64,000 nucleotides of DNA from an uncultured Solirubrobacterales bacterium (GCA_963795745.1 CAWCIT010000008.1:184232-248231), one strand, 5' to 3'. Shown: positions 11,455 to 42,974, counted from the stretch's first letter. The notes: generated from the sequence alone by a model not told the origin. Numbers and translations are program-made.

Positions 11455-11578
11455 CTCCTCGCCTCCCCGCTGAACGTGTCTGCCGCGCCGACGCAGGTGA
11501 TGGCGACTGCTGCCTGACCGCTCGAACCGGCACGCGCGGGGGCCCCTCGCGTACCCGGGCGGCCGCCGATCCTCCGGC

Positions 11579-22500: not shown

Positions 22501-24732
22501 GAAGTCGGAGGAGACCGCGGTCGTCCCGGAGGGGTCGACCGCATTGGTCGAGGTGAACAGCGGCGTCGCGGCGCACGTCGGGTCGGCCGGGGCGTAGACG
22601 TTGAAGGTCACGGTGCCCGTCGGCGGCCCCCCGCCCGCGGGCGGGCTGAGCGTCGCGGTGTCGTGGAACGCTCCGCCCACGGCGATCGGAGTCGGCGCGA
22701 CCTGGGTGGCGATGGCGAGCCCCGTCCGGGCGACGGTCACGCGTTCGCTCGGGTCCCCGCACGACGAGGTGGCCGAGTTGTAGTTCGCGTCGCCGCTATA
22801 GGTCGCGACCACCACGTAGGTGCCCGCCGCCGCCGCGGTGAAGGCGCCGGAGGTCACCGACGGGCTGTCGACGAGCGGGACGGTGGAGCTGAAGACCGGG
22901 GACGAGGCGCACTGGGAGTCGTTCAGGTAGACGTCGAAGGTGACCGTCCCGGTCGGTGGCGGCGCGCCCTCGAACGGCGAGCCCACGGTGGCGCGGTCCT
23001 GGAAGCTGCCGCCGACGGCGATCGCGGCCGGCGTGGCCAGCGTGGTGAGCGTCGGCTGCGCCGGATTGACCGTGACCGACTCGGCCGGGTCGCTGCACAC
23101 CGACGCCGAGGGCTGGTAGTTCGCATCGCCGCTGTAGGTCGCGATCACCTGGTAGGTCCCGGCGGCGGTCGGGAAGAAGTTCGTCGACGCCGCTGAGGTT
23201 CCCGCGGCGTTGACCGGATTGGTCGAGGTCAGGACCGGGCTCGCGGTGCATGCCGGGTCACCCGGGCCGTACACGTCGAAGGTCACCGACCCGGTCGGCG
23301 CGGCTGCCCCGGCGACGGCGGGTCCGAGCGTGGCCGTGTCCTGGAAGTTGGCGCCGAGCGTGATCGAGGCTGGCGCGACCTGCGTGGCGATGGCCAGCGG
23401 CGCCGGGCTGACCGTGACCGCCTCGGCCGGGTCGGCGCAGAGCGAGGCCGACGCCGTGTAGTTGGCGTCGCCGCTGTAGCTGGCCACCACCCGATAGGTG
23501 CCGGCGCCCGTCGGCGTGAAGTCGCTCGACGCGGCCATCGTCCCCGACGCGGTGAGCGGGTCGGTCGAGGTGAAGACGGGCGCCGCCGCGCACGACGGGT
23601 CCGCCGGGCCGTAGACGTTGAAGGTGACCGTCCCGGTCGGCGCCGGCACCCCGGCCGGGGCGGGACCGAGCGTCGCGTCGTCGTGGAAGGTGGAGCCCAG
23701 GCCGATCGTCTCCGGCGTCACGTCGGTCGTCACGGCCACCGTCGCCGGGCCGACGCTCACCGACTCCCCCGGGTCGCCGCACGTCGTCGAGGTCGGGCCG
23801 TAGTTGGCGTCGCCGCTGTAGGTGGCGATCACGTCGTAGCCGCCCTGGGTGGTCGGGGTGAACGGGTCGGAGACCGCCGTGGTCCCGGCGGCGTCGACCG
23901 GGTTGGTCGAGCTGAAGACCGAGGAGGTGTCGCAGGAGCTGCCGGTCGGATAGACGACGAACGTGACCGTCCCGGTCGGCGTCGCCGCCCCCGCCGTCGG
24001 GCTCAGGGTCGCCGTGTCCTGGAACGGCGAGCCGACGCCGATCGCCGGCGGGGCGACCTGCGTGGCGATCGGGAGGGCGCCCGGCGAGACCGTGACCTGG
24101 TTGGACGAGCTGCCGCTGCCGGTGACCTGGTCGGTCGCGGTGCCTTGGGCGAAGCCGGCCTGTTCGGTCTGGATGCCGCTCGCGTCGGGGTTCGCGTCGC
24201 CGGCCGGCATCCGGACCACGTCGACGGTGAAGTCGATCACGCACGTCGTGTTCCCGGAGCCGCTGGCCGGACCGAGGACGACGGGGGCGGACGGCGTGAA
24301 CTGAACCTTGCCCTGCAAGGCGTCGACCACCGCGATCGTGAACGTCGTCCCGGCGCAGGCCGTGCCCGCCTCACCGACGCCGGTCGCGCTGAGGCGCAGC
24401 ACCCCGGGGTCCGTCCGCCCCGGCGGGCAGTCGGCGCCGGAGGGGAAGGTGGTGCAACTCGGGACGAGGGTGATCGTGCCGAGCGTGACCGGCAGGGTGT
24501 CCTCGGGCGGGCTCGACTGGTTGGAGATCGTCAGCGTCTCGAGAACCGCGGACTGCCCGACCCTGAGGGAATTGCCACTGGGGATGCTCGGAGCGGCGCT
24601 CAACCCGACGGTGGCCCAGGCCGGGCCGGCGGCCACGCCGAGGAACGCGCCGAGAACCACCAGCGCCAGTACGACCGCGCGCCAGCGGAGAAGCCCCACC
24701 CCGTCGCCGCCCCCCTCCCGCATCGCCCGCAT
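19546..24732 (-). CDS. Giant secreted surface/adhesin-like protein (1728 aa): signal peptide, Cys-containing N-domain, 8 Ig-like (Big_3-type) repeats, 3 IPT/TIG domains, a short collagen-like GXY run, an FN3-like domain and a conserved C-terminal module
   Basis: Signal peptide: RWRAVVLALVVLGAFLGVAAGPAWA. There are eight ~113-aa repeats, each ending YSGDANY..S..C.DP.E.V.V. Three IPT/TIG units have the form SGP.AGGT.VTITGTGF.GA..V.FG...TVDVTVTTP.GTS. The collagen-like run is GPPGPAGPSGPSGPTG. GAGGGA lies 7 nt upstream of ATG 24732. Confidence 0.85.
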   Translation of the reverse strand: MRAMREGGGDGVGLLRWRAVVLALVVLGAFLGVAAGPAWATVGLSAAPSIPSGNSLRVGQSAVLETLTISNQSSPPEDTLPVTLGTITLVPSCTTFPSGADCPPGRTDPGVLRLSATGVGEAGTACAGTTFTIAVVDALQGKVQFTPSAPVVLGPASGSGNTTCVIDFTVDVVRMPAGDANPDASGIQTEQAGFAQGTATDQVTGSGSSSNQVTVSPGALPIATQVAPPAIGVGSPFQDTATLSPTAGAATPTGTVTFVVYPTGSSCDTSSVFSSTNPVDAAGTTAVSDPFTPTTQGGYDVIATYSGDANYGPTSTTCGDPGESVSVGPATVAVTTDVTPETIGLGSTFHDDATLGPAPAGVPAPTGTVTFNVYGPADPSCAAAPVFTSTDPLTASGTMAASSDFTPTGAGTYRVVASYSGDANYTASASLCADPAEAVTVSPAPLAIATQVAPASITLGANFQDTATLGPAVAGAAAPTGSVTFDVYGPGDPACTASPVLTSTNPVNAAGTSAASTNFFPTAAGTYQVIATYSGDANYQPSASVCSDPAESVTVNPAQPTLTTLATPAAIAVGGSFQDRATVGSPFEGAPPPTGTVTFDVYLNDSQCASSPVFSSTVPLVDSPSVTSGAFTAAAAGTYVVVATYSGDANYNSATSSCGDPSERVTVARTGLAIATQVAPTPIAVGGAFHDTATLSPPAGGGPPTGTVTFNVYAPADPTCAATPLFTSTNAVDPSGTTAVSSDFSPTAPGTYRVIASYSGDASYLASASTCADPAEAEVVGRASLPVATAVAPATIALGGAFHDTATVAPPAGGAPAPTGTVTFNVYGPSDPACASAPALTATAALSGGSATSSSFTPARTGAYRVVAAYGGDANYLPSASSCGDPGETVTVGRAPLVLATAVAPASLALGGSFADTASLGPVPAGAAAPSGSVTFQVYGPGDPTCAATPVFTSINPLGADGNSATSGRFTPSSAGTYRVIASYAGDADYTPSTSACADPAEAAAVGRATALALTTDAGPEAIALGASFNDAATLGPAPAGAAAPTGTVTFAVFGPADATCSAAPVFTSTNALTRGGTAAASDSFTPTLAGTYRVVATYSGDGNYPTSTTACADPTEAVVVSAPAPAVTGLSPISGPQAGGTTVTITGTGFAGATGVSFGGTPATAFTVTSPSQITATAPAGSGTVDVRVTTPAGTSPTTAPDAYAYVAPPTGPPLVTAVTPASGPAAGGNGVVISGTGFTGATSVHFGSAPAPVVGVSADGTQLTTVAPPGTGTVDVTVTTPSGTSTKGAADHYAYGTPLPAPAVTAISPTSGPAAGGTVVTITGTGLTGASFVRFGAAPAQFTVDGPTQITATAPAGTGTVDVTVTTPSGTSPAGAGDQFTYVGGSPGPPGPAGPSGPSGPTGTPRAATVVTGPPKVINSTSVEFSAVINPGGAPTTMHFEYTVASGAPATAAAVSYAATTPEQVVGSDFADHVVKAVVARLLPNSAYHVKAVASNALGVASGGDAAFQTAVDPPPGPPVLGKSVDAATVSGVVYVLVPGTGHVASAHTSAAKGVGFVPLTEARQLPVGTIFDTTSGVARLTTATATKGQTQAGNFGGGLFKLLQNRKERGLSELRLVLRSTAARRCAAGKVPKVGKVGQVGQAQTAAAKALPKTVLALLRANVKGKFRTRGRYSAATVRGTMWTTTDRCDGTLTAVQRGVVAVTNLRTRRQIVLRAGRSYLAKAP
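21367..24081 (-). repeat. Array of 8 diverged ~340-bp coding repeats (Ig-like domain repeats) within the giant protein gene
   Basis: A periodic protein motif, PTGTVTF.VYGP.DP.C....VFTSTN...GT.....F.PT..GTY.V.A.YSGDANY, recurs about every 113 aa between residues ~218 and ~1122. Confidence 0.8.
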
Positions 24733-24844
24733 GCCGCTGTCCCTCGCGCCTGTCCCGCCAGCCGATCGATCCCCAAGCCGGGCGCCGCAGAGGCGCCCTG
24801 CGCGATCATACGCCCGAGCGGAGCGACCGGCGCCGACGCCCCGA

Positions 24845-27800
24845 TCAGGCCGCCTTGGCCAGGTAGCTGCGCCCGGCCCGCAGCACGATCTGGCGCCGGG
24901 TGCGGCAGATCAGTGACCACGACCACACCGCGCTGCACGGCCGTCAGCGTGCCGTCGCAGCGATCCGTCGTCGTCCACATCGTGCCGCGCACCGTCGCCG
25001 CGCTGTAGCGCCCGCGCGTGCGGAACCTCCCCTTGACGTTCGCCCGCAGCAGGTTGAGGACCGTCTTCGGCAGCGCCTTGGCGGCCGCCGTCTGGGCGGT
25101 GGCGGCGTTGCCGGCCGGTGGACACCGTTTGGTCGCGCTGCTCTGGGCCACCAGCCGCAGCTCGCTGAGGCCGCGCTCCCGGCGGTTCTGCAGAAGTCGG
25201 AACAGACCGCCGCCGAACTCCCCGGACTGCACCCGGCTCCGGGTGGCGGTCGCCGTGGTCAGCCGCGCCACGCCCTTGCTGGCGTCGAAGATCGTCCCCA
25301 CGGGCAGCTGGCGCGCCTCGGTCAGCGGGATGAAGCCCACGCCCTTGGCCGCGCTCGCGTGGGCCGCGGCGACGTGCCCGGCGCCGGGGAGGAGCACGTA
25401 GACGACGCCGCTGACCGGGACGGCGTTGAACGTCCTCCCGAGCAGCGGGGGCGGCGGTGGGGGATCGGTCGCCGTCTTGAACGTCGCATCCGCGCCCGGG
25501 GTCACGCCCTGGGGATTGGTGGCCACCGCCCGAACGTGGTAGCTGCTGTTCGGGAGCAGGCCGGCGACCCGGGCGGTGACCACGTGGGCGGCGAAGTCGG
25601 ACCCCACCGTCTGCTCCGGCGTGCGCGCGGCGTAGGTGATCGCCGCCGCGCTCGCCCCGGCCGGCGCCACCGCCGCGTACTCGAAGTGCATCGTCGTGGG
25701 CAGGCCCTCGGGGTTGATCGTCGCGGTGAACTGGGCGCTCGAGCTGCTGAGCACCTGCGGCGGACCGACCTGCAACGTCGGCGCCTGGTGTCCCGAACTG
25801 GCCGACCCGACCGCCCCGCCCGCGGTCGCGGCACCGGTCGTCGTACCGCCGGTGGTGGGGGCGCCAGTCGTCCCGCCGCCGGTCGTCCCGCCGCCGGTCG
25901 TCCCGCCGGTCGTCGCACCGCCGGTCGTCCCGCCGCCCGCCGTGCCAGCGCCGGTCGACTGCGGCGGGACGTAGGCGTACCGGTCGGCGGCGCCGGCCGC
26001 GCTGGTCCCGGCCGCTGTCGTCACCGTCACGTCGACGGTCCCCGTCCCCGGCGGGGTGAGGGCTACGAGCCGCGTGCCGGCGGCATCGACGCTCAGGATC
26101 GTCCCGGGCCTCGAGCCGAAGCTGACCGCCTTCGCCCCGCCGAGGCCAGTGCCGAAGACGACGACGCCGTCCCCGCCCGCGGTCGAGCCCGACGCCGGCG
26201 CCAGGCTCGCGATCACCGGGCCGCCGGCGGGCGGACCGTGGGTGACCGTGGTTCCGGGCGCGACGCACGAGGGATCGTCGGCTCCGGTCCAGGTCAGCTC
26301 CACCTGGACCGACCCGGGCGCTCCGGTCTCACCGACCAGGGTGATCAGGAACTGAGGCAGGCCGTTGGCCGTCGCGAGGTTGAGCCCGGTCAGGTCGACC
26401 GCGCCCGTGCTGTCGAGCGGCCGCGAAGGCGCGTTCGGGATCGGATTGCCGTCCCCGTCCTCGAAGGCGACCGAGCCGCTGGTGTAGGTGCCGGGCGCGG
26501 GCGAGAGCACCTTCAGCGAGGTGAACTGGCTTGGCATGCACAGTGAGCTGGGCACGACGACGCCCGAGGCCAGGACGCGGATCGGCCCCTGGCCGCAGCC
26601 GCTCCCGGTGAACGCATCGAAGTTCTGGATCTGACCCGAGCCGCCGTCGGCGTTGACCCAGATGCACGTCGGGCGCTGCGGATCCGGGTTGACCGTGTAG
26701 AGGAAGCTCAGGTTGCTGAGGCTCTTGGGGAAGTTGGCGCACGCCGCGGAGGTGCTGTAGTCGTAGCAGAGGACATGGTCGGTGTTGCCGTCGGGGACGT
26801 AGACGCGGGGGCCCAGCACGAAGGCCGGGCCGTTCCAGCCGTCGGTCGGGGTGATCACGGTGGCCAGTCCGGCCGGGGCGGCGACCGGCGCGCCGGCCAG
26901 GCTGAAGCAGGGGGTGTTGGGGCTGGGCAGGCAGAGCCCGGTGACGGTGCCGGAGGCGCTCAGGAGCGGGAAGGGCGCCCCGTAGTTGGAGGCGTAGGAG
27001 AAGTCGAGCTTGACCGGCCAGGAGCCCGAGCAGTTGCCGCCGGCGGTGGCGTCGTAGCAGGCCAGCTCTTCGGTGCCGCCGACGGTGACCGGGACGATCA
27101 CCTGGCCGGCGATCGCCGCCGTGGCCGGCGCGGGGAAGGTCTGATTCGTGAGGGTCCCGCTCCCGACCGAGACCGCGTACGGCTGCCCGGCGCAGGCGGC
27201 AAAGGTCGTCAGGTCGAAGCAGAGCAGCTTGTTCTCGGCGCCGGTGACGGGGGCGCCGTCGACGTAGTTGAAGGCGTACCAGCGCGTGCCCACCACCACG
27301 GGATCGCTTATCCCACTCGTTCCTGGCGACGCCTCGCCGGCCCCGGTGAGCGCGGTGAACCCGCAGAACGGCTTGGGCGGAGTCGCCGCCGCCTGCGCCG
27401 TGTCGATGCAGACGACACCGGCTGTCTGGTCGTTGGTCCGGGTGGCGAACACGTACAGGTGCCCGCTGGCCTGGTCGAGCCAGAGCCCGGGTTGGCTCGA
27501 GGTGGCGAAGTCGTTGCCGTTCGCGTCGGTGACGGTCTCCGGCGCCCAGCACGGCGAGGCGTCGGTCTGGAGATGGCAGGCGACCTGAAGCGTGCCGGCG
27601 TGGTGGAAGACGTTGTAGACGGCGGTCGGCGTCATCGCGACCGCCCATCCGTCACCGCCGCCGCTGCCGGCGAAGGTCGACGCCGGGGGCACGGGGATGG
27701 TCACCGTGGCCGTGTAGGTCGCCTGCGGCGCGCCCGCCGCCCACGCCGTCTCGACGGACCCGACCGATCCGACGCCGAGCGCCGCCGCGACCGACGCCAT

Positions 27801-27869
27801 CAACAGCCGGAGGCGTCGGCGCCGCCTGCGAATCGGTTGTGAACTTCCTCTCTCCACGAAGGCCCCCAC
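24845..27869 (-). CDS. Large secreted protein: signal peptide, 7-fold Cys-pair repeat (propeller-like) domain, IPT/TIG, Gly/Thr linker, FN3-like domain and the same C-terminal module as 19546..24732. It has an apparent 1-nt frameshift near the 3' end
   Basis: The tracked ORF 24600..27869 matches its paralog up to ...TAVQRGVVVVTDL, then diverges. Alignment to 19546..19625 shows one extra base near 24905. Reading past it in the other frame restores RTRRQIVLRAGRSYLAKAA and a stop at 24845-24847. Signal peptide: RRRRRRLRLLMASVAAALGVGSVGSVETAWA. The start could be GTG 27869 or the GTG 4 codons downstream, which is preceded by AAGGTGGGGG. Confidence 0.75.
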
Positions 27870-31724: not shown

Positions 31725-32428
31725 ACCTAGCGCCCTACGCACAGCCCGACGTGGAGTGCGTCAGGAAGAAGCGCTGCCGAATTCCGCGGCGGTGATCTCG
31801 CCGCGTTGCAGGGCAAGGGCGATCGCGTGGGGGCGCGTTTGCGCTCCCAGTTTGACGAGGACGTTCTGCAGGTGTGTGCGGACGGTGTCTGGCGAGATGA
31901 AGAGTTCGGCGGCGATCTGCGGGCCGCTTTCGCCGACCGCGACGCGCACGAGGATCTCGCGCTCCCGGGGGGAGAGGCGTCTGCCGCCGGTGGTGGCGGG
32001 GACCGACAGGGGCGCTTCGGTCTGGTTCATCAGGATCGAGAGGTGGAGGCCCGGCACGAAGTTCGGCGTCGCGCTGTACTCGACCGTGATGCGCGTGGAT
32101 TTGGCCGTGCACATCTCCCAGGTACCCTCGCCGCCGGTGTTGCCCGCGGTGAACGTGGGCCAGACCGTTTCGAGGAGCTCTTGGTCCTGGTCAGGCGTGA
32201 AGTCATCGATTCGCTTGCCGATGATCTCCTCGTGGGGGCACTCCAGCAGCAGGCCGCTGGCCTGGTTGCAGTCCACGTAGACGCGAGCGTTGTTGACGAT
32301 CAGCATCGCGTTACGGGTCCGCTCGAACACCGCCTCGAGGTGGTCGTGGCGCCAGTCGCGCGCCGAGCGGAACCCGGAATCGCGGCCAGGAGCGAACCAG
32401 GGACTGGCCGCTTGGTCGGGTACGCGCC
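31725..32428. repeat. Segmental duplication, copy 1 (PAS-LuxR gene plus flanks); continues at 33904..33950 after the IS3 insertion
   Basis: It aligns by eye with 34283..35022 at high identity, for example gtgatctcgccgcgttg[ct]agggcaagggcgatcgcgtgggggcgcgtttgcgctcccagtttgac in both copies. Confidence 0.85.
31761..32428 (-). CDS. PAS-domain / LuxR-type HTH (GerE) transcriptional regulator, copy 1; the 5' end is interrupted by an IS3-family insertion
   Basis: The C-terminus RLSPREREILVRVAVGESGPQIAAELFISPDTVRTHLQNVLVKLG is a LuxR/GerE HTH. A PAS-like region lies upstream (HLEAVFERTRNAMLIVNNARVYVDCNQASGLLLECPHEEIIGKRIDDF). The frame is intact up to the IS junction at ~32428. Any start would now lie in IS-derived sequence. 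Confidence 0.7.
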
Positions 32429-32484
32429 ATCGTTTTGAGACACGAATTTGTTTGGATCGGGTTTCCGAGTCGAAGGAGAAGACG

Positions 32485-32799
32485 ATGGCTCGTCCCCCGA
32501 TGTTCAGCGTGCAGGAGAAGCAGCGGATCGTGCTCAGCGTGTTGCGTGGCGAGGCGAGTGTGGCGGAGGCCGCGCGGCGCAACAAGTGCTCGGAGACGTC
32601 GATCGCGAAGTGGCGTGAGCAGTTCGTGCAGGCCGGCCTGGGTGCGCTGGCGGCGGGGGCGGAGCGGGGACCGTCGGCGCGCGAGGCGCAGCTCGAGCGC
32701 GAGCTCGGCGAGGTGACGCTGGCGCTGGGTGAGGCGCATGTCGAGTTGCGGCTGCTCAAGCGCGAGGGGGCGGGTTTCGCTTTGAGGAGCTTGAAGTGA
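32485..32799 (+). CDS. IS3-family transposase OrfA (HTH)
   Basis: MARPPMFSVQEKQRIVLSVLRGEASVAEAARRNKCSETSIAKWREQF, followed by a leucine-zipper-like tail. AAGGAGA lies upstream of ATG 32485. Confidence 0.85.
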   Translation: MARPPMFSVQEKQRIVLSVLRGEASVAEAARRNKCSETSIAKWREQFVQAGLGALAAGAERGPSAREAQLERELGEVTLALGEAHVELRLLKREGAGFALRSLK

Positions 32800-33713
32800 T
32801 CCGCGTGGAGGCGGGCCTGAGCGTCGAGCGGTTCTGCGCTGTCGCGGGGATCGCGAGGCCGACGTGGTATCGCTGGCGAGAGCGGGCGCTCGGCGGTCAG
32901 CCGGTGAAAGGGCCGTGGCCGCAGCCAACGCGTGATCGGGTGAGCGCGGTCGTGTTGGCGTACGCGCTGCGCTATCCGGCGTGGGGGCATCGAAAGATCT
33001 GGGCGTTGACCGTCGCCGATGGGCACCGCGTCAGCCAGCGCACGGTGCATCGCATCCTCGACGAGCACGGCCTGATCCATCCTGGCCGCTACCAGGCGCA
33101 GCGGCGCGAGCTCGCCCAGGCGCGCAGGCAGACGTTTCATGACCCGCCGACCAGGCGCAACCGGGTCTGGCAGACCGACTTCTCGGAGTTCGAGACCAGG
33201 GCCGGCGGGACGTGGCAACTCGGCGGGGTCGTTGATTACGTCGCGAAGTTCTGCCTGACGTGCCCGGTGACCGCGACGAAGACGTGGCGGGACGCCGTCG
33301 GCGCGCTCGAGGCCGCCAGGGAACGCGCCGGCGAGGTTCTCGGCCACCAGTTGATCGAGGATCTCGTCGATCGCCCGACGGGTGAGCTTCACCCGATCGT
33401 CGTCGTCAGCGACAACGGCCCGTGCTACAAGGCCGGCGCGTTCGCGCGCTACATCGCCTCGCGCCCGGAGTTCGAACACGTCCGCACCCGCCATCGCAGT
33501 CCGCAGACCAACGGGGTGATCGAGCGCTGGTATCAGTCGGTGAAGTACGAGCACCTCTACCTGCACGAGATCGACGACGGCCCCGCGCTCGCCGAGCAAG
33601 TCGCTGGCTACCAGCGCATCTACAACGACGAGCGGCCACACGAAGCGATCGACTGGGCCCGGCCACGCGAGCGCTACACCCAGACCCCCGCCCAACCCGA
33701 CCAGCCGGCATGA
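32796..33713 (+). CDS. IS3-family transposase OrfB (rve/DDE integrase core)
   Basis: WQTDFSEF...VVDYVAK...VVSDNGPCYKA...HRSPQTNGVIERWYQSVKYE: a DD(35)E integrase core. GTG 32796 overlaps the OrfA stop (GTGA). Confidence 0.9.
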   Translation: MIRVEAGLSVERFCAVAGIARPTWYRWRERALGGQPVKGPWPQPTRDRVSAVVLAYALRYPAWGHRKIWALTVADGHRVSQRTVHRILDEHGLIHPGRYQAQRRELAQARRQTFHDPPTRRNRVWQTDFSEFETRAGGTWQLGGVVDYVAKFCLTCPVTATKTWRDAVGALEAARERAGEVLGHQLIEDLVDRPTGELHPIVVVSDNGPCYKAGAFARYIASRPEFEHVRTRHRSPQTNGVIERWYQSVKYEHLYLHEIDDGPALAEQVAGYQRIYNDERPHEAIDWARPRERYTQTPAQPDQPA

Positions 33714-34024
33714 CCGCAACGCCCAAAGCTCTTCCTCCCCGTCCGGGACGATGTCCCGGACCTGGTTGCCCGGCAGCGGCGGCGGCGAGCCTTGTCACCC
33801 GCAGGGCGGCCCAACGGGCCGAGCGCGAAGCGCTTGACCAGGATCGCCGACACCGCTACCCAAGACCCCACATAGCAACGATCTGCCACACACCAACAAC
33901 GACCGCCCGGAATTTCCGGGCTGGGAACTCGGACACGAATACTCCTTGGGAAAGGGACAGTCAAGTGCCGGGAGGGTTGGTGTAGGAGTTCGCCGCTCAC
34001 TTCGTCGGTGGGTGCGTTGGCGCT

Positions 34025-34244: not shown

Positions 34245-34282
34245 GAGGAGCAGTGCGAGCCGTCGCGCTCCGGTCGGCTCCG

Positions 34283-35022
34283 CGCCCTACGCTACAGCCA
34301 GATCGTGGAGTGCGGTCAGGAAGACGCGCTGTCGAATTCCTCGGCGGTGATCTCGCCGCGTTGTAGGGCAAGGGCGATCGCGTGGGGGCGCGTTTGCGCT
34401 CCCAGTTTGACCAGGACGTGCTGCAGGTGCGTGCGGACGGTGTCTGGCGAGATGAAGAGCTCGGCGGCGATCTGCGGGCCGCTTTCGCCGACCGCGACGC
34501 GCAGAAGGATCTCACGCTCCCGCGGCGAGAGGCGTTTGCCGCCGGTGGTGGCGGGGACCTTCAAGGACAGGTCGGACTGCTTCATCAGGATCGAGAGGTG
34601 GAGGCCCGGCACGAAGTTCGGCGTCGCGCTGTACTCGACCGTGATCGCGCGTGGATTTGGCCGTGCACAGCTCCCAGGTGCCCTCACGGGCGGCAGTGGC
34701 CGAGAGGAATTCGGGCCAGGTCGTCTCGAGTAGGTCTTGGTCCTGGTCAGGCGTGAAGTCATCGATTCGCTTGCCGATGATCTCCTCGTGGGGGCACTCC
34801 AGCAGCAGGCCGCTGGCCTGGTTGCAGTCCACGTAGACGCGAGCGTTGTTGACGATCAGCATCGCGTTACGGGTCCGCTCGAACACCGCCTCGAGGTGGT
34901 CGTGGCGCCAGTCGCGCGCCGAGCGGAACCCGGAATCGCGGCCAGGAGCGAACCAGGGACTGGCCGGTGGGTCGGGTACGCCCCGGAATTGCCGGGCTGG
35001 GAACTCGGACACGAATACTCCT
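34283..35022. repeat. Segmental duplication, copy 2 (uninterrupted by IS)
   Basis: See copy 1 (31725..32428 plus 33904..33950). Confidence 0.85.
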
Positions 35023-35048
35023 CGAAGGGACGGCGCGGCGGAGCACAA
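34316..35048 (-). pseudogene. PAS-LuxR regulator, copy 2, disrupted by a 1-nt insertion (or a sequencing error)
   Basis: It is split over ORFs 34512..35048 and 34316..34762. Relative to copy 1 (cgaccgtgatgcgcgtgg), copy 2 reads cgaccgtgatCgcgcgtgg, with the extra c near 34646. This breaks the frame between ...CTAKSTR and ITVEYSATPNF.... Confidence 0.7.
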
Positions 35049-35176
35049 GGTCCGAGCGCGATACAGGCCGACCCCGAAGCATCCATTTGCTGGGCTGAAT
35101 CCTATCGCGTCTGGAAGCTCGCTAACCCTAAGTAAACGGGGATCAGCTAGCTAAAACTCTAACTATCCTGGGGCGG

Positions 35177-35235
35177 ATACGTAAATCGGGGATGCGAATA
35201 CGTCAATCCGGGACGCGAAATACGTCAATAGGGGA
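35177..35235. promoter_or_regulatory. Three direct repeats ATACGT[AC]AAT[n1-2]GGGA spaced 21-22 bp apart, in a low-GC intergenic region
   Basis: The repeats are atacgtaaatcgggga (35177-35192), atacgtcaatccggga (35198-35213) and atacgtcaatagggga (35220-35235). They lie between the LuxR copy 2 (divergent) and the 35462 surface-protein gene. Confidence 0.5.
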
Positions 35236-35461
35236 ACGGCAACGCTGCGGTTTGGGGTACTGCACTAGTAGGCATCGCGACTCTCGAAACCAGGAACCCG
35301 TCCCTGAGTCGTAACCACGGCTGGCTCCACACCGGAGCGAGCCGCAACTAGCACACGCAGCACCGGGACACACAAGGCGGCCCCGGCACTAACGGCTCTA
35401 TCGACGACGGCCCGTCAGCAGACGGTACGCCCAAGCTCCCCAGAGGGCTTAGGAGGCAGCG

Positions 35462-36982
35462 ATGAAGTACTCCCCCGAAGCCCATGCTCGAGCAGCGCAG
35501 ACACCTACCCCTTCGTGGCGCCTGGGGGTGCTCATCGCACTGGGACTCGGTCTTGGCGCCTTCGCCTCGCAGTCCTCCGTTGCGCTGGCCCAGTCCCCCG
35601 TCTCGGCTCCCACCGCCGTCTCGGCACCCACCGCCGTCTCGGCACCCACCGCCGCCATGCCCGTCGCAGTCGTTGCCTCTGCGGCCAGTGCCAGCTCTCC
35701 GCCCGACGTGGCCGGCGCGGCCACCACCGCGTCCAGCGGCGCCTCCGAGCCTGCCGCAGCTGCCGCCGCGCCGAGTACCCCGTCCCCGGCGCCCCAGACC
35801 CCCTCTGCGCCCATCGTCGCCGCCGTCGCGCCGGTTGTCGCCGCGGCCTCTAGCGCCCCGGCCACGCCTAGCGCGCCCATCGTCGCCGCCGTCGCGCCCA
35901 GCGCCCCCGCCACGCCGGCAGTCGCCGCGGCCTCTAGCGCCCCGGCCACGCCTAGCGCGCCCATCGTCGCCGCCTCCCCGCCGGCGACCTCGCCCTCCTC
36001 TGCGCCGGCCGCTGTCCCCCCGCCGCCTAGCGGCCCCCCCGCGTCCAACGCGACCGGCGCGCCCATAGTCGCCTCCACCGCCGCGCCCAGCACCTCCGGC
36101 GCACCGACCCCCGCCGCTGCCATGCCCATCGTCGCTGTAGCCGCACCCGTCGCCCCAAAGCGATCGATTGCCCGCGCAGCCGCCGTGAACGCGGCCGCTC
36201 CGGTCATCGGAACGGTGGATCAGTGCAACAACACGGGCTCCGTCGGGGGCGACACGATCAAGTGCAAGGTCACCGTCACGAATAACTTCGCCTACAACGC
36301 GGCGACGCCCAATAGCCCGACCGGGCTGGCGACGATCGTCACCGAGATCAACTGCACGGGGTCGGCGGTCTGCCCGACCGGGGGCACCACGACCTCGACG
36401 ACCCCGGTGACCAACGTCGATCAATGCAACAACGCCGGCCTGGGCGGAGCCAGCACGGTGACCTGCACCGTGACCGTCACCAACAACCTCACGGGCTACC
36501 CCGTCGGCTCCGCGAGCGACTCCACCGTCGCGCAATGCCAGACGCCCGGCGTAGTCGGCACACTGACCTGCGTCGCCACCCCGCCCGGCAACAACCGCTC
36601 CGGTACCGCCGGCCCCGGCGGGCAAAGCGTCAACCAGTGCAACAGCTCCGGCGGGGCGGGCGGCACCCTGACCTGCACCGCCACGGCTCCTCCCACCCAG
36701 AGCACCGGGCTGCCCATCACGATCAACCAATGCAACGCCTCCGGCAAGACCGGCGCCAGCACCGTCACCTGCACCGCCACGATCACCAACAACTTCAAAG
36801 ACAGCATCCCCGCCGTCGTCGTGCCGCCCGTCGTGACGCCGCCGGTCGTCACGCCCGCCGGTCCCCGTCGTGACGCCGCCCGTCGTCACGCCGCCGGTGC
36901 CCGTCGTGACGCCGCCCGTCGTACGCCCCCGGTGCCCGTCGTGACGCCGCCCGTCGTTACGCCCGCCGGTCGCCCGTCGTGA
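35462..36982 (+). CDS. Secreted Ala/Pro-rich protein with 4-5 novel QCN-type Cys-hairpin repeats. It is probably the 5' part of a single LPXTG surface-protein gene (35462..37618) that is broken in its repeat stalk
   Basis: AGGAGG lies 5 nt before ATG 35462. Signal peptide: WRLGVLIALGLGLGAFASQSSVALA. The N-region has SAPTAV x3 and AAASSAPATPSAPIVAAVAP x3 repeats. The repeated modules are VDQCNNTGSVGGDTIKCKVTVTNNF, VDQCNNAGLGGASTVTCTVTVTNNL, VAQCQTPGVVGTLTCVATPPGNN, VNQCNSSGGAGGTLTCTATAP and INQCNASGKTGASTVTCTATITNNF. A PVVTPP stalk follows, in which the frame is lost. Confidence 0.7.
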   Translation: MKYSPEAHARAAQTPTPSWRLGVLIALGLGLGAFASQSSVALAQSPVSAPTAVSAPTAVSAPTAAMPVAVVASAASASSPPDVAGAATTASSGASEPAAAAAAPSTPSPAPQTPSAPIVAAVAPVVAAASSAPATPSAPIVAAVAPSAPATPAVAAASSAPATPSAPIVAASPPATSPSSAPAAVPPPPSGPPASNATGAPIVASTAAPSTSGAPTPAAAMPIVAVAAPVAPKRSIARAAAVNAAAPVIGTVDQCNNTGSVGGDTIKCKVTVTNNFAYNAATPNSPTGLATIVTEINCTGSAVCPTGGTTTSTTPVTNVDQCNNAGLGGASTVTCTVTVTNNLTGYPVGSASDSTVAQCQTPGVVGTLTCVATPPGNNRSGTAGPGGQSVNQCNSSGGAGGTLTCTATAPPTQSTGLPITINQCNASGKTGASTVTCTATITNNFKDSIPAVVVPPVVTPPVVTPAGPRRDAARRHAAGARRDAARRTPPVPVVTPPVVTPAGRPS

Positions 36983-37232
36983 CGCCGCCCGTCGTTACGC
37001 CGCCGGTCCCCGTCGTGACGCCCCCCGTCGTCACGCCCGCCGGTCGCCCGTCGTGACGCCGCCCGTCGTACGCCCCCGGTCGCCCGTCGTGACGCCGCCC
37101 GTCGTCACGCCGCCGGTGCCCGTCGTGACGCCGCCCGTCGTCGACGCCGCCGGTCGCCCGTCGTGACGCCGCCCGTCGTCACGCCCGCCGGTCGCCCGTC
37201 GTGACGCCGCCCGTCGTCACGCCCCCCGGTCA
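36811..37232 (+). repeat. Degenerate ~36-bp tandem repeats encoding (PVVTPP)n, with unit-length variants that break the reading frame
   Basis: The unit cccgtcgtgacgccgcccgtcgtcacgccgccggtg recurs about 11 times. Several units are 35 or 37 nt (for example ...acgcccgccggtcgcccgtcgtga..., ...gtcgtacgcccccggt...). Stops therefore appear in every frame (ORFs end at 36873 and 36982). Confidence 0.85.
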
Positions 37233-37285
37233 CCACAGTCCCCCGTCGCCCCGTCCCTGTCGCCACCGTCCCGGTCGCGGTTGCC

Positions 37286-37618
37286 GTGCCCGCGGTCGTC
37301 CCGCTCCCGGCTGCTTCATTGCCGGTCACGTCACCGGCGGTTCGTCATGTCGCCCACCGTTATGCCGTCACGACGCACCCCATCTCGACGTCGATGCCGA
37401 CCAAGAGGGAGGCCATTGAGCTCGCGGCGGTCCCCGTGCCGCCCGCGGATAGCGGCGCGGCGAGCACTAGCCAGACGCGGCGCGGCGTAGCCACGAGCTC
37501 GGCCACCTTGCCGTTCACGGGACTCAACGTCATGTGGCTGCTGGTCGGCGGAGTGATCCTGCTGGCGGCAGGGGTGGCGTTGCGGCGCTTCGGCTCGCGT
37601 CGCCAGGGAGTTGAGTGA
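37286..37618 (+). CDS. C-terminal cell-wall sorting signal segment (LPFTG + TM helix + basic tail); a likely 3' part of the broken surface-protein gene
   Basis: ...SSATLPFTGLNVMWLLVGGVILLAAGVALRRFGSRRQGVE followed by a stop. This is the canonical LPXTG / hydrophobic / Arg-rich tripartite sortase signal. The same frame is open upstream into the P/V/T-rich stalk (VTTVPRRPVPVATVPVAVAVPAVVPLP). Confidence 0.6.
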   Translation: MPAVVPLPAASLPVTSPAVRHVAHRYAVTTHPISTSMPTKREAIELAAVPVPPADSGAASTSQTRRGVATSSATLPFTGLNVMWLLVGGVILLAAGVALRRFGSRRQGVE

Positions 37619-37797
37619 TGCTAGCCACCGTCTTTATGATCCTCGCCGCCTGGACGGGCGTGAGCCTGCTGGTCGGTGTCCTCCTCGTGCAAGGTTGGGG
37701 GAGACGCAGGTGCATGCCTGCGGGCCCTCCGATGGCGAATCCCGCCTACCCAGACCTTCACGCCAGCCCGGTCGAGCTTCGGCAAGGAGCGGGCTAA
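37615..37797 (+). CDS. Small hydrophobic ORF (one TM helix), hypothetical; it ends 3 nt before the IS1380 inverted repeat
   Basis: MLATVFMILAAWTGVSLLVGVLLVQGW. The start overlaps the stop of the LPXTG segment (GTGATG). The stop TAA is at 37795-37797. Confidence 0.3.
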   Translation: MMLATVFMILAAWTGVSLLVGVLLVQGWGRRRCMPAGPPMANPAYPDLHASPVELRQGAG

Positions 37798-37800
37798 GCG

Positions 37801-39430
37801 CGGATCCACCGATCGTGTAGGCCGGTTCCGTCCGGTCGTTGCAGAAGAATGACCTCCAGTGCAGGGCTTTTACGGCTGTTGGCGGCAGCCGGGGCCTGCA
37901 ACGGGAGGTCACCTTCGTGGTGCACGATGACAGGCCGGTCGGACTGGACGGGGTCGAGGTCGTTTTTGATGATGAGAAGGTCGTCTCGGACGCGGGTGTG
38001 ATGCTCGTCGCGACGCTCGCCGGGCGCCTCGGGATTGAGGCGTTGGCGGTGGATCTCGTGCGGCTGCGCCCGGGTCGGCCGGGGCCGGCGAACGCGGGGC
38101 GCAAGATCATGGCGCTCGTGTTCGCGATGATCTTGGGCGCTGACAGCATCGATGACTGCCAGGTGCTCCGGGCGGGTCGCACCGGGCGCCTGTTGGGGGG
38201 CTGGATCCCGGCACCGTCGACGTTGGGGACGTTTCTGCGGGCCTTCACCTTCGGGCATGTCAGGCAGCTCGACGCGCTGTTGGGCCGGTCGATCGAGCGG
38301 GCGTGGAAGGCCGGCGCCGGCCCCGGCGAGGGGCGGCTGGTCGTCGATGTCGACAGCTTCGTCGGCGAGGTCTGCGGTCGGTTGAAGCAGGGCGCCAGCT
38401 ACGGCTACACCCGGCTGCTGGGCTACCACCCGCTGCTCGCGACCAGGGCGGACACCAGGGAGACGCTGCACATCCGGCTGCGGAAGGGCTCAGCGAACAC
38501 GCAGCGGGGCATGAAGCGCTTCACCGAGGAGCTGATCGCCCGGGTCAACCGCGCCGGCGCGAACGGCGTGAAGCTCCTCCGCGCAGATTCGGGGTTCTGG
38601 AACACGAAGGTCTTCGAGCTCCTCGAGAACGCGGGCTGGGAATACTCGATCGGGGTGCGGATGATCAAGACCGTCCGCGCTGCGGTCGATCAGATCGCTG
38701 AGGACGCCTGGCAGACGATCGCCTACCCCGATGAGGGCGAGGCGCAGATCGCCGAGACCGTCTACGGCGGCCGGCGCCTGGTCGTCCGGCGGACCCGCCT
38801 GACCGGGGCCAAGCAGGCCGAGCTGTGGCCCGACTGGCGACACTTCTGCTTCCTCACCAACCGCACGGAGGCCGTCGTGCTTGTCGAGGCTGAGCACCGC
38901 GATCACGCCGTCGTTGAGCAGGTCATCAGCGACCTCAAGGACCAGGCGCTCGCGCACTTCCCCTCCGGCGAGTTCAACGCCAACGGCGCCTGGACCGTGC
39001 TCGCCGCCCTCGCGCACAACCTGCTGCGCTGGACCCAGCTCCTCGGCCTGCCCGACACCACAATCCGCGCCGCCCGCACCCTGCGCCGCCGGCTCCTCCA
39101 GATCCCGGGGCGGTTGACGAGCCACGCCCGCGGCTGGACGCTTCACCTCCCCGCCCGCTGGCCCTGGCACGGCGACTACATCGCGGCCCTGAACCGCATC
39201 CGCGCCCTCCCAGCCCCGGCCTGAACGCCGACCACCGACACCGACGACGAGCAGCACACCCCGGGCACACCACCCGCGATCACCCCTGCCCGCGAACCCT
39301 CCAGAAGATCCCCGCTGCGGACGTCAACAACCCGCCCGCCCCGATCACACCGCCAAAACCAACGCCACACCCAGCCCCGACGCCGCCAGCCCCACCTCAG
39401 GCGACCCACCGACCTCGATCGGTGGATCCG
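37801..39430 (+). mobile_element. IS1380-family insertion sequence with perfect 15-bp terminal inverted repeats (CGGATCCACCGATCG)
   Basis: cggatccaccgatcg at 37801-37815 and its exact reverse complement cgatcggtggatccg at 39416-39430 bracket the transposase ORF. I could not see a clear target-site duplication. Confidence 0.8.
37839..39224 (+). CDS. IS1380-family DDE transposase
   Basis: VSDAGVMLVATLAGRLGIEAL, LGADSIDDCQVLR, VVDVDSF, GYHPLLA, LRADSGFW, HFCFLTN, AEHRDHAVVEQVISDLKDQALAHFPSGEFNANGAW: the characteristic IS1380 blocks. The start may be an internal GTG near 37917. Confidence 0.85.
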   Translation: MQKNDLQCRAFTAVGGSRGLQREVTFVVHDDRPVGLDGVEVVFDDEKVVSDAGVMLVATLAGRLGIEALAVDLVRLRPGRPGPANAGRKIMALVFAMILGADSIDDCQVLRAGRTGRLLGGWIPAPSTLGTFLRAFTFGHVRQLDALLGRSIERAWKAGAGPGEGRLVVDVDSFVGEVCGRLKQGASYGYTRLLGYHPLLATRADTRETLHIRLRKGSANTQRGMKRFTEELIARVNRAGANGVKLLRADSGFWNTKVFELLENAGWEYSIGVRMIKTVRAAVDQIAEDAWQTIAYPDEGEAQIAETVYGGRRLVVRRTRLTGAKQAELWPDWRHFCFLTNRTEAVVLVEAEHRDHAVVEQVISDLKDQALAHFPSGEFNANGAWTVLAALAHNLLRWTQLLGLPDTTIRAARTLRRRLLQIPGRLTSHARGWTLHLPARWPWHGDYIAALNRIRALPAPA

Positions 39431-39800: not shown

Positions 39801-40997
39801 ATGGGACGGACGGTGGCGCTTGATGTGCATAAGCGCTTTGCCGAGGTCGCGGTGCACGAGAACGGCGAGGTCCGCCGCGTGGGGCGCGTCGAGACCAAGG
39901 AGCTCGGCGCTTTCGCTGATTCGCTGCGGCCTGATGATCATGTGGTGCTGGAGTCGACGTCGATGACGTGGGCGATCGCGGAGCTTCTGGCGCGGCGCGC
40001 GGGACGGGTCACGGTGTCCAATCCGATGCGCACGAAGGCGATCGCGTCGGCGAAGGTGAAGTCCGACAAGGTCGACGCGCGGGTCCTGGCGCAGTTGGGT
40101 GCGGCGGACTTTCTGCCGGAGGTGTGGGCGCCTGACGAGCAGACCAGGGAGCTGCGGCGGCGGATCGCTCACCGCTCGAGCTTGGTGCGCCAGCGCACGA
40201 GGCTGCGCAACCAGATCCACGCCGTGCTGGCGCGCAATCTGATCGATCTGGACGTCAGCGACGTGTTTGGCCACAAGGGTCGCCGGCTGCTCGCCGGGGT
40301 CGTGCTGGCCGCGCATGAGCGCGACCAGGTCGATTCGGCGCTGCGGCTGCATGACGCGCTGACCGCGGAGATTGAGCTCGCTGAGCAGCCGTTGGCGCGT
40401 CGCGCTCTTGACGATGAAGGGGTGCGGCGGCTGATGACGATCCCCGGGGTCGGGTCGATCACGGCGCTCTCGATGATCGCGGTCATCGGCGACATCCACC
40501 GGTTCCCGAGCGCCCGCAACCTCGTCGGTTACGTGGGCCTGGATCCCAGGGTGCGCCAGTCGGGGGAGCGCAAGGCTCGCCACGGCCATATCTCCCGGGA
40601 GGGGCAGGCGCACGCCCGCGGCCTGTTGGTCGAGGCGGCGCACTGCGCGATCCGCACCCCCGGGCCCCTGCGCGCCTTTCACGCCCGCGTCAAGGAGCGC
40701 CGCGGGTCGCAGGTCGCGCTGTGCGCGACCGCACGCAAGCTGGCGGTGCTCTCATGGCACCTGCTCACCCGCGGCGAGGACTACCGCCATAGTGCCCAGA
40801 CCATCACGCTGCGCAAGCTCCGCACTTTGCAGCGCAAAGCCGGGGACGGCGGCCCCCGGATCAGTCTCGCCGGCGAGGCATCCCGCAAAGAGCTCGAGCG
40901 GCGTCTGCTCGAGCAAGCCGAGCGCCACTACCGAGTCGAAGTTGCCGCCTACCGGCGGCGCGGCGCGGGTGCCACCAACGGGGACGCGACTCTATGA
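39801..40997 (+). CDS. IS110-family transposase (intact-looking)
   Basis: VALDVHKRF...VVLESTSMTW (DEDD N-domain) and MTIPGVGSITALSMIAVIGDIHRFPSARNLVGYVGLDPRVRQSGE (Transposase_20 HhH domain). AAAGGAG lies upstream of ATG 39801. Confidence 0.9.
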   Translation: MGRTVALDVHKRFAEVAVHENGEVRRVGRVETKELGAFADSLRPDDHVVLESTSMTWAIAELLARRAGRVTVSNPMRTKAIASAKVKSDKVDARVLAQLGAADFLPEVWAPDEQTRELRRRIAHRSSLVRQRTRLRNQIHAVLARNLIDLDVSDVFGHKGRRLLAGVVLAAHERDQVDSALRLHDALTAEIELAEQPLARRALDDEGVRRLMTIPGVGSITALSMIAVIGDIHRFPSARNLVGYVGLDPRVRQSGERKARHGHISREGQAHARGLLVEAAHCAIRTPGPLRAFHARVKERRGSQVALCATARKLAVLSWHLLTRGEDYRHSAQTITLRKLRTLQRKAGDGGPRISLAGEASRKELERRLLEQAERHYRVEVAAYRRRGAGATNGDATL

Positions 40998-41315: not shown

Positions 41316-42401
41316 TCAGTCGAGCGTGGCGGCCTCCCAGCAGAACGCGGCGAGTTCGCGCGCGCACGCGACGACAACGGTGCCGGTGTGCTTGCCGCGA
41401 CGGGTGCCGAGATGGCGCCAGCGTGCGTTCAGGCGCTGTTGTGCTCGCCAAGCGATCGCCACGACGCGGGGGTCCTGGCCGACTTGGCGGGCAGCGATCG
41501 TCTCACCCACGGCGGCGCGATGGTGGTAGTGATGCGCGGCTTCGACGAGCAGCCGGCGGGCGTGCGGCGGCCCGGCCTTGGTGATCTGGCCCTGCACCCG
41601 CTTGCTGTCTGAGGTGTACTCGCACGGGACGATCCCGAGGAATCCTGAGAGCAGCGCGGGCTTCTCGAACCGCTCGAACGAGCCGATCTCGGCGCACAGC
41701 CCGGCGGCGGTCAGGGTGTCGATCCCCCTGAAGCAGCGCAGCCGGGCGATCGTCTCGGCGTGACTGCTCGCCGGTACGGCTTCCTCGAGGACGCTGATCA
41801 GCGTGCCGCGGCGTTGCGCGAGCGCGTCGACCGCGCAGCGGTAGTCCAGGAACGTCGCGCGCGACAACGCGTCCTCGAAGACGAGCTTCCCAAGCCAACG
41901 CCCGTGCGGCTGCGTCCACGCCCGACCCGGGAAGCGCAGCCCGCGGCGCAGCAGAAACTTCGAGAGGCGATGCCGGGAGCGCATCAGGTCCTTGCGGGCA
42001 TCCTCGATGCAGCGCACCAAATCACGAAACCGCTCGTCGGTCTCGCTCGGCACGAACGCGAACGACAGCTCCCCGGCCGCGAACAACCGCACCAGCCGCT
42101 TCGCGTCGCGCCGGTCGGTCTTGACCCGGTCACCCGGCGACCTGGGAATCGATCCGGGCGCAACGACCCGCACATCAACACCACGCTCCGCGGCTGCCCT
42201 GGCCAGCCCAAACCCCGACGGGCCCGCCTCATACACCGCGCGCACCGGCCGCCCCAGGCCCTCAAGAAACGCCAGCACCACCAGCGCCGGCGCACCCCAC
42301 AACCGCTCCACCTGGAGCTCCCCGGTGACCGGATCGAGAACCGCCGCGACCGTCTGCGCCTGATGCACATCCAGACCCACCAGAGCCATACTCTCCGACA
42401 T
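41316..42401 (-). CDS. IS110-family transposase (a second, different member)
   Basis: MSESMALVGLDVHQAQTVAAVLD..., VYEAGPSGF, and FRGIDTLTAAGLCAEIGSFERFEKPALLSGFLGIVPCEYTSDSKRVQGQITKAG. ATG 42401 was verified. The tracked start 42464 adds 21 aa. Confidence 0.9.
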   Translation of the reverse strand: MSESMALVGLDVHQAQTVAAVLDPVTGELQVERLWGAPALVVLAFLEGLGRPVRAVYEAGPSGFGLARAAAERGVDVRVVAPGSIPRSPGDRVKTDRRDAKRLVRLFAAGELSFAFVPSETDERFRDLVRCIEDARKDLMRSRHRLSKFLLRRGLRFPGRAWTQPHGRWLGKLVFEDALSRATFLDYRCAVDALAQRRGTLISVLEEAVPASSHAETIARLRCFRGIDTLTAAGLCAEIGSFERFEKPALLSGFLGIVPCEYTSDSKRVQGQITKAGPPHARRLLVEAAHHYHHRAAVGETIAARQVGQDPRVVAIAWRAQQRLNARWRHLGTRRGKHTGTVVVACARELAAFCWEAATLD

Positions 42402-42974
42402 GGTCGGCACCTCCCATAGCTGGGGTGTCGGCACCGGGACCACCCCGGCGCCCAGTCCCCGCACACCTATGCGCGGGGTGCCGACCGACTCTGCCTGAAC
42501 CGCCGAACGACCGGCAATCCATAGGGTCTAAGGTGCTCCGCGGACGGCCGTTCACGGCCGGAATTACGGTTCTTGTCGCGGCGCTTCTCGCCTCGAGTGC
42601 CCGGGCCGCCGCAGTGCCGCTGGGGACCGACACCGAGCCTGAGCGGCTCGCGCGGCTCGCCCGGCTGCGCTGGAAGATCGAGCTCAGGCGGCTCCTGGTA
42701 CCGTGCCGTCGAAGACATCTGGTGTCTACACCCACGAGCGCAAGCGCGGGCCACCTCGCCCCCCGTGATCGGCGTCCACGACGAACTCAGCGGCCGGTAC
42801 GGCAGCGCGGCCGAACTGGCGCCATGTGAGCATGTCGCGAGGACGCTCCTGCGAGTCCCGATCCGGACGATAGGGGGCGCTTGGTCCGGCTATTCCAGAC
42901 TTCTGCAATCGCGCCTGTTCTCAGGAGTCCGGCGTCGGCGCGCCTACGGGCGCTCACCCCCGCCGGGCCTGCCG

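Follow-up and report, generated by a model that had tools for sequence, protein, structure and literature searches.

The locus considered here raises the question of what kind of surface protein is encoded when the head of the protein and its cell wall anchor appear in separate open reading frames (ORFs), and whether such a gene belongs to the organism in which it is found. It lies on the plus strand, at positions 35462 to 37618, of a stretch of 64,000 nucleotides (nt) from an uncultured Solirubrobacterales bacterium (GCA_963795745.1, CAWCIT010000008.1:184232-248231), in the following termed the window. A preliminary description, made from the sequence, had interpreted it as a horizontally acquired, LPXTG-anchored adhesin that is built from a previously unnamed Cys-hairpin repeat. 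We consider it likely that the gene encodes a sortase-substrate cell wall protein with a DUF8253 domain in a Solirubrobacterales-like (Thermoleophilia) soil actinobacterium, and somewhat more likely than not that the breaks in its reading frame arose by assembly error. This includes two corrections, as the “unnamed” repeat has a Pfam accession, and as the gene appears to belong to the organism and not to the neighboring island of insertion sequences (IS).

The identity of the repeat region follows from its homologues. A domain search recovered 260 homologues at E<=1e-3, the best of them with E=1.1e-92, 83% identity and 96% coverage. All 120 of the 120 matches listed carry the annotation PF26781.1, for which contig look-ups give the name DUF8253, and the similarity to these annotated proteins extends over the full length of the domain (amino acids (aa) 250-445, 60-94% identity). 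Five QC...C units, an extra Cys pair with 12 Cys residues in total, strands that end in N-N (TNN), and a single-domain architecture are shared with the family. Judged by its sequence, the domain is a new member of a catalogued, functionally uncharacterised Pfam family, and the supposedly unnamed repeat thus matches a family that has already been described. The QC region was scanned against local copies of Pfam-A and NCBIfam without a match, and proteins annotated as PF26781 gave none either; as the local copy predates this accession, the blank is not evidence of novelty, and the absence of PF26781 from these copies also accounts for the fact that the unit could not be named at first.

The preliminary description had counted five units of about 25 aa, each with two Cys residues at a distance of 12-13 residues and with a TNN end. 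Five units with two Cys residues each are indeed present (VDQCN..C, VDQCN..C, VAQCQ..C, VNQCN..C and INQCN..C), but the spacing ranges from 11 to 13 (13, 13, 11, 12 and 13 in units 1 to 5), and the T-x-T-N-N end is found in units 1, 2 and 5 only. Moreover, there are six Cys pairs and not five, as the sequence NCTGSAVC between units 1 and 2 contributes a further pair (aa 298/304), which results in 12 Cys residues at aa 255, 268, 298, 304, 322, 335, 359, 370, 393, 405, 424 and 437. This count is kept in 90 of 120 homologues, and 86 of the 104 homologues that span the domain have all 12 residues; where Cys residues are lost, the loss runs by adjacent pairs, namely 3-4 and 7-8. As the 260 homologues have invariant Q, C, N and G columns (Q85, C86, C99, N105, Q156, C157, G164, C169), the QC-unit pattern evidently lies far beyond chance.

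The search of the family beyond the window, which had been proposed at the outset, was carried out as an exhaustive profile search and gave 477 clusters (50% identity), of which 251 lie below 1e-30; the proteins of these clusters are nearly all single-domain proteins of 250-700 aa. The family occurs mainly in Actinomycetota, together with Dormibacteria, and named sources are Thermoleophilaceae, Solirubrobacteraceae, Acidimicrobiaceae, Cryobacterium, Arthrobacter, Pseudolysinimonas and Candidatus Dormibacteria. In the genome-collection scan, which used the close-clade alignment A2 and from which loci are designated by L numbers, the nearest locus was L004, a Solirubrobacterales metagenome-assembled genome (MAG) with 94% aa identity in the domain. 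Members of Thermoleophilia and some Acidimicrobiia form a clade that differs from the members of Microbacteriaceae and Dormibacteria by an inserted loop (YNAATPNSPTG) after unit 1, by near-complete threonine ladders, and in many cases by a low-complexity linker of 150-300 aa ahead of the domain. The name DUF8253 is not mentioned in the searchable literature. With about 480 clusters, the family is displayed on the surface of abundant, little-studied soil Thermoleophilia, Acidimicrobiia, Microbacteriaceae and Dormibacteria.

What fold may such a domain adopt? The earlier proposal of a disulfide-stapled beta repeat is compatible with structure prediction and coevolution. An AlphaFold2 model that is based on a 107-sequence alignment is confident and all-beta (predicted local distance difference test (pLDDT) 89.9, predicted template modeling score (pTM) 0.86), and each unit in this model consists of two strands with a Gly-rich loop between them, the short one ending in Q-C and the long one, of 7-13 residues, bearing the second Cys. 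Mean-field direct coupling analysis (DCA), carried out on 245 aligned members (effective sequence number (Meff) 197) and evaluated for the top 100 couplings, found position +4 from the first Cys (C1+4) coupled to position -2 from the second (C2-2) in every unit, which indicates a loop closure that is consistent with a C1-C2 disulfide. Inter-unit contacts make up 50 of the top 100 couplings, and 26 of these 50 are in register, versus 10% expected. Neighbor pairs were obtained for U1-U2, U2-U5, U5-U4 and U4-U3, and none for U2-U3, although repeat homology can mimic or inflate such a signal. This pattern would fit units that are stacked in register, yet not in a simple sequential solenoid, with the order U1-U2-U5-U4-U3. 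As the 12 Cys residues are kept, as they are lost pairwise, and as the model is all-beta and the couplings agree, the domain fits a predicted disulfide-stapled all-beta repeat architecture.

This predicted fold has no counterpart among the structures that were compared. Foldseek found nothing at E<=0.001 in the PDB (best E=0.14, TM-score 0.16) and nothing at E<=0.001 in BFVD, the top matches in PDB and BFVD had TM-scores of 0.10-0.18, and the best ones were beta-helices with E>=0.14 and TM-scores <=0.16. A profile search against PDB sequences gave no match at E<=1. DUF8253 combines a confident predicted fold without match among solved or viral structures with six conserved putative disulfides and, as described below, a conserved sensor-regulator partner, and a structure together with a ligand would add a new surface-binding module.

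The long strands also suggest which side of the domain faces outward. If the second Cys is taken as inward, strand alternation places positions C2-3, -1, +1, +3 and +5 on the outward face. In the Thermoleophilia clade, the share of Thr at each of them is 63-100%, for the most part 90-100%, across most of the five units, and N-N follows; exceptions are C2+1, which has Ala/Thr or Val in units 1 and 3, and +5, which has Pro in units 3-4. The distant members mostly have Thr at +3 and +5 only. The resulting T-x-T-C-T-x-T-x-T threonine ladders are likely the most conserved solvent-facing feature of the domain, and likely its functional face.

The head domain is embedded in the following arrangement of the gene:

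35451..35456, plus strand: ribosome-binding site AGGAGG, 5 nt before the ATG; kept in L004
35462..36982, plus strand: main ORF, 506 aa (translation)
35462..35590, plus strand: signal peptide, aa 1-43, predicted cut between ALA and Q (translation)
35591..36208, plus strand: Ala/Pro-rich low-complexity linker, aa 44-249, about 205 aa, with in-frame tandem repeats of 18 nt and 84 nt
36209..36796, plus strand: DUF8253 (PF26781) domain, aa 250-445, five QC units and one C-x5-C pair
36797..37285, plus strand: Pro/Val/Thr stalk, with a tandem array at 36825-37231 in scrambled frame
37286..37618, plus strand: C-terminal sorting-signal segment, with LPFTG at 37508-37522, a helix, RRFGSRRQGVE and the stop

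Several elements of this arrangement had been recognised at the start and hold, namely the strong ribosome-binding site, the signal peptide, the Ala/Pro-rich N-terminal region and the PVVTPP stalk. The N-terminus reads MKYSPEAHARAAQTPTPSWR-LGVLIALGLGLGAFA-SQSSVALA, with Q after the cut, and is of the classical type, with a basic n-region and the hydrophobic core LGVLIALGLGLGAFA. It was assigned by eye from the translation, and its layout recurs in the orthologues L005, L007, L010 and L014. The window protein thus carries a secretion signal of the kind that sortase substrates have. Linkers of similar kind, with 150-300 aa, are found in L005, L007, L008, L010, L013, L014 and P0007, and the sequence IPAVVVPPVVTPPVVTP after the domain belongs to the stalk. 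An exact look-up of the 506-aa product returned no record, and an exact 25-mer from the domain/stalk junction had 0 matches in metagenome contigs, so that no independent assembly of the strain was found. Within 34900-37900, an Rfam scan gave no RNA family, and a scan for promoters and terminators gave a single promoter-like site at the 3' end of the gene, which is uninformative.

The orthologues bear on the question whether such a protein is anchored to the cell wall. About 20 complete orthologues from short-read assemblies (L002, L005, L007, L009, L011, L012, L014, L028, L030-L039, L041, L043-L045) are single ORFs with a signal peptide, the domain, a stalk and a C-terminal anchor; the low-complexity linker is often, though not always, present. 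Their stalks are of the PVV, G, T or TTGT type, and intact PVV-type stalks occur in L005, L011 and L026. Most of these copies end in an LPXTG-type motif (LPFTG, LAFTG, LPQTG, LPPTG and others), a membrane helix and a basic tail; in a few, L012 for instance, the motif is missing and only helix and tail are present. A sorting signal could be recognised in 50 of 120 database homologues, with 29 LAxTG and 19 LPxTG motifs. The anchor of the window, TLPFTG-LNVMWLLVGGVILLAAGVAL-RRFGSRRQGVE followed by the stop, likewise consists of motif, helix and positive tail, and it is 60% identical to the anchor of L004 over 43 aa; as the two anchors are orthologous, this segment of the window can be regarded as sound.

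The view that the window gene encodes a surface protein of the LPXTG/sortase-substrate type, which was also the first interpretation of the locus, is supported by these sequence comparisons, and also by a locus of Cryobacterium sp. M91 (L022), in which a sortase gene at 8887-9576 (PF04203, 30.9 bits at a cut-off of 26.6) overlaps the 3' end of the DUF8253 gene. The DUF8253 product of that locus has no canonical LPXTG motif and reads ...FVPATDDGG... before the membrane helix and RRISARH; the pair may possibly represent a dedicated sortase with a variant sorting motif. Family membership is drawn from annotated homologues. Many members have neither LPXTG nor LAXTG, and those that were inspected, for example P0027, terminate in a helix with a basic tail. 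Two observations weigh against the assignment: for the window anchor, the hidden Markov models (HMMs) of the sorting signal score below their cut-offs (Gram_pos_anchor PF00746 with 14.4 bits versus 20, TIGR01167 with 12.3 versus 15.9), and a motif scan of the 64-kb window and of the regions that flank close orthologues detected no ORF of a TLxTC-type sortase.

In its overall plan, the protein resembles fibrillar adhesin-like LPXTG/LAXTG proteins, which share the signal peptide, the folded head, the Pro-rich stalk, and LPFTG with helix and Arg-rich tail. It differs from them in that the stalk is a simple peptide repeat and does not consist of tandem immunoglobulin (Ig)-like domains, in that a long disordered linker precedes the head, and in that head and anchor are found in separate ORFs. 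The adhesin function that had been proposed is putative.

Why, then, are head and anchor separated? The sorting signal had been described as lying in another frame; LPFTG, the helix and RRFGSRRQ are real, but they are in the same nominal frame as the ATG, as the distance between 35462 and 37286 amounts to 1824 nt, which is 608 codons. Between the main ORF and the anchor there are frame-0 TGA codons at 36980, 37016 and 37202, and a minimum of 3 frame switches is needed to join head and anchor, or 7-8 if the PVVTPP reading is tracked, as this reading wanders across all three frames. The responsible array at 36825-37231 has, according to Tandem Repeats Finder, a period of 38, 11 copies, 92% match and 6% indels. 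Its basic unit is PPVVT (15 nt), which is organised in super-units of 35-38 nt, and if cut at a fixed anchor word, the units have lengths of 37, 36, 35, 38, 36, 38, 36, 36, 38 and 38. The 36-nt unit encodes VVTPPVVTPPVP, and the units of 35, 37 and 38 nt shift the frame. The two-frame appearance is a scrambled tandem array that cuts off an anchor in the same frame, and should not be over-interpreted. Signal peptide, passenger and sorting signal are not contained in one ORF in the window, while they are in the about 20 short-read orthologues, and as these are continuous, the interruption may be an assembly artefact.

The surroundings of the gene bear on its regulation and on its origin:

34316..35048, minus strand: PAS-LuxR (GerE) gene, divergent; PAS_4 at 34512-35048 and GerE at 34316-34762 (Pfam)
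35176..35235, plus strand: three direct repeats AATACGTCAATccGGGA, spaced by 21 and 22 nt, in the divergent promoter region; candidate operator
31761..33719, minus strand: 652-aa ORF, whose C-terminal PAS-GerE third duplicates the regulator (Pfam, self-BLAST)
37839..39224, plus strand: DDE transposase DDE_Tnp_1_4 (Pfam E=4.6e-45); context, not part of the gene
39801-40997, plus strand: IS110-family transposase gene (Pfam DEDD_Tnp_IS110, Transposase_20); context
41316-42464, minus strand: IS110-family transposase gene (Pfam DEDD_Tnp_IS110, Transposase_20); context

The LuxR-type neighbors and the transposases that had been noticed at the locus are thus present according to Pfam. In comparison with the intact 260-aa orthologue of L004, the divergent PAS-LuxR gene is split into two overlapping ORFs by an additional G near 34645. 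A homologous PAS-LuxR gene adjoins the DUF8253 gene in 12 loci, and most of these regulators are 57-74% identical to one another; in L002, a PAS histidine kinase and a GerE response regulator take its place. In the window, the regulator region is duplicated upstream (31730-32428 versus 34282-34984, 92.7% nt identity by self-BLAST), and this upstream copy is 87% identical at the aa level to the L004 regulator, which is nearer than the frameshifted copy beside the gene. As the direct repeats are positioned in the divergent region, and as the 64-kb window has no match (<=1 mismatch) besides the three at 35176-35235, the TACGTCAAT repeats are a candidate operator by their arrangement. L004 has the core TACGTCAAT four times at 8867-8951, with a spacing of 22, 21 and 21 nt.

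The low-GC leader described earlier is real (GC 0.60, with 0.54 in its core), but the horizontal acquisition that had been proposed for the gene is not supported. Its GC content of 0.740 equals that of the window (0.738), L004 shares the divergent PAS-LuxR gene and the intergenic direct repeats, and its downstream genes match window positions 51358-53120 in inverted orientation. Because of the GC content, the regulator that is kept in 12 loci, and the synteny with L004, the DUF8253 gene is, as far as can be judged from such comparisons, resident, and the IS elements arrived later. The GC values and the L004 synteny led us to reject a reading as horizontally transferred cargo. As a separate observation, a Logan contig of the run ERR11523670 contains a 99.8% match to the IS110 copy at 39801-40997.

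Taken together, the intended product would be a protein of about 700 aa that starts with a Sec signal peptide, followed by about 200 aa of disordered Ala/Pro linker, a head of about 196 aa, the stalk and the sorting signal. Its all-beta head, with five QC...C units and the extra pair, would form six consecutive disulfides after export. A housekeeping sortase that is encoded elsewhere would cleave LPFTG between T and G and join the protein to peptidoglycan, and the Pro/Val/Thr stalk would keep the head off the wall. The head may then bind a putative external ligand or surface by the conserved, solvent-facing threonine ladders on the long strands, which are stacked. The divergent PAS-LuxR protein probably acts on the three TACGTCAAT repeats, with their spacing of 21 nt, to control expression.

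What alternatives exist for the frame breaks in the stalk? We lean towards consensus errors of a long-read assembly and favor them over real decay. Of the six MFD copies, only L008 is intact, while the five others (L004, L013, L015, L017, L018) are frame-broken, and in L017 and L018 the break lies within the non-repetitive domain. The MFD MAGs are nanopore-only assemblies that have undergone one round of Medaka polishing (PMC12313526). L001, another flye-style contig, is likewise broken, and none of the about 20 short-read copies is. The window itself is part of a contig of the 0.2-1 Mb class that resolves several IS copies, which suggests a long-read origin, and the defect of the PAS-LuxR gene is a single extra G, which we count toward an artefact. 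The IS110 copy and its Logan short-read counterpart differ by 3 substitutions and 0 indels, a comparison that is uninformative on indel errors of the assembly. A frame tracker that is based on GC by codon position and the Viterbi algorithm put the Thr-rich domain on the wrong strand and proved unreliable for counting frameshifts across the window. There are nevertheless good reasons to doubt an assembly error. At least 3 and realistically 7-8 frame changes are crowded into 400 nt, while elsewhere in the window long ORFs stay open, among them those of 1728 aa and 1089 aa, which indicate a low general error rate. The 38-nt variant units are near-identical, as though they had been spread by duplication, and other GC-rich arrays at 4725-5450 (periods of 39, 48 and 60 nt), which are in frame within an open 874-aa ORF and served as internal control for indel errors, have 0-2% indels. 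The neighboring PAS-LuxR gene is frameshifted and has its 92.7% duplicate at a distance of 2.5 kb, three transposase genes follow the anchor immediately, and on that side the synteny with L004 is inverted.

These points would agree with a genuine pseudogene, in which the module would have lost its function after IS elements had invaded and rearranged the locus, with non-triplet slippage indels in the stalk array and a +1 frameshift in the regulator, and which would at most yield a 506-aa protein that is secreted but not anchored and has a garbled tail. We regard this as a possible though rather doubtful explanation. Against it, the net frame is kept, as the anchor lies in frame 0, neither stops nor decay are seen in the N-terminal 250 aa, in the head domain or in the anchor, and the nanopore-only MFD copies are broken alike at the stated frequency, whereas short-read copies never are. 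In principle, the non-triplet units could also constitute a contingency locus, in which slippage toggles between a protein that is anchored to the wall and one that is released or truncated. In line with such phase-variable anchoring, the array inside this surface-protein gene has a period not divisible by 3, and two related MAGs, those of the window and of L004, are each broken in low-complexity segments. It is nonetheless highly improbable, because runs of at least 3 consecutive 38-nt units meet a TGA in every frame, so that no copy number of such units restores the ORF, and the units of intact relatives, with 15, 27 or 36 nt, are compatible with triplets. We thus return to assembly error as our favored explanation, and the data point to indel errors that persist in GC-rich, low-complexity genes when MAGs are assembled from long reads. 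As five of six nanopore-only copies are broken versus none of about 20 short-read copies, frameshifts in such genes of nanopore-only MAGs need to be checked.

A further alternative concerns not the gene but the function of the head, which might be a module that binds ice or crystal surfaces, with flat Thr arrays that dock to ice, and not an adhesin for a host or polymer. The already described Thr content of the outward positions in the Thermoleophilia clade speaks for it, as does the vicinity of genes with the Ice_binding domain DUF3494 (PF11999). In L005, a DUF3494 gene with LPFTG (11395-12612, Pfam E=1.9e-65) starts in an ATGA that overlaps the DUF8253 stop, and this overlap of the two ORFs suggests co-translation of DUF8253 and DUF3494; DUF3494 homologues are also found 1.3-3 kb upstream in L001 (2285-3052) and L019 (8201-8875). 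The C-terminus was read through for the L005 copy, which is LPFTG-anchored. The two families are not homologous, and the window protein has no Pfam match to PF11999. DUF8253 members in Cryobacterium and an Antarctic-labelled MAG (L006) would be in agreement with a function in the cold; the name prefixes of several other MAGs presumably denote Antarctic soils as well. Beetle antifreeze proteins of the Tenebrio molitor type are disulfide-braced beta-helices with TCT/TxT arrays and coils of 12 aa. The likeness lies in inward Cys residues that are flanked by outward Thr residues (T-C-T), in one disulfide per repeat, and in repeats that are stacked in register with Thr ladders on one face. In contrast to these proteins, DUF8253 has units of 31-67 aa with strands of 7-13 residues and a putative unit order that does not fit a simple solenoid, and the window domain has no sequence or Foldseek similarity to them.

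On the other side, the threonine ladder is only partly kept in distant members, DUF3494 genes are present in 3 of about 45 loci, with none in the window or in the other about 40 loci, and many members come from temperate Danish soils. The Foldseek matches to ice-binding proteins are noise (E=6-9, TM-score <0.1), and most DUF3494 proteins are themselves only putative binders. We therefore consider an ice- or crystal-binding head improbable; literature on Cryobacterium, ice binding and LPXTG turned up nothing relevant. The same low expectation applies to the more specific idea that DUF8253 is a structurally unprecedented, surface-displayed binder of ice or crystal faces, in which five stapled units would present a planar grid of about 20-25 Thr residues, and it is just as unlikely that such a binder would be convergent with the beetle TCT antifreeze proteins and paired in some Thermoleophilia with a co-transcribed DUF3494 protein under a PAS-LuxR switch. 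The threonine ladders and the DUF3494 genes nevertheless provide a lead that is a cheap and testable hypothesis, while a head that is anchored by sortase and may bind some external ligand or surface is the function that we propose for the DUF8253 protein.

Three other genes of the window were noted on the minus strand. Positions 3914-6538, with 82-87% GC, encode the 874-aa protein, which is rich in Ala, Pro and Arg and has a HHLDECLDC motif that looks anti-sigma-like by eye. The secreted 1728-aa protein (19546-24732) has about eight Ig-like repeats of 342 nt (114 aa), and the 1089-aa protein (24600-27869) is also secreted; both have TIG/IPT-like repeats, and no LPXTG was seen in either. The two proteins share a C-terminal region of about 330 aa (19546-20521 versus 24845-25795, 78.7% nt identity).

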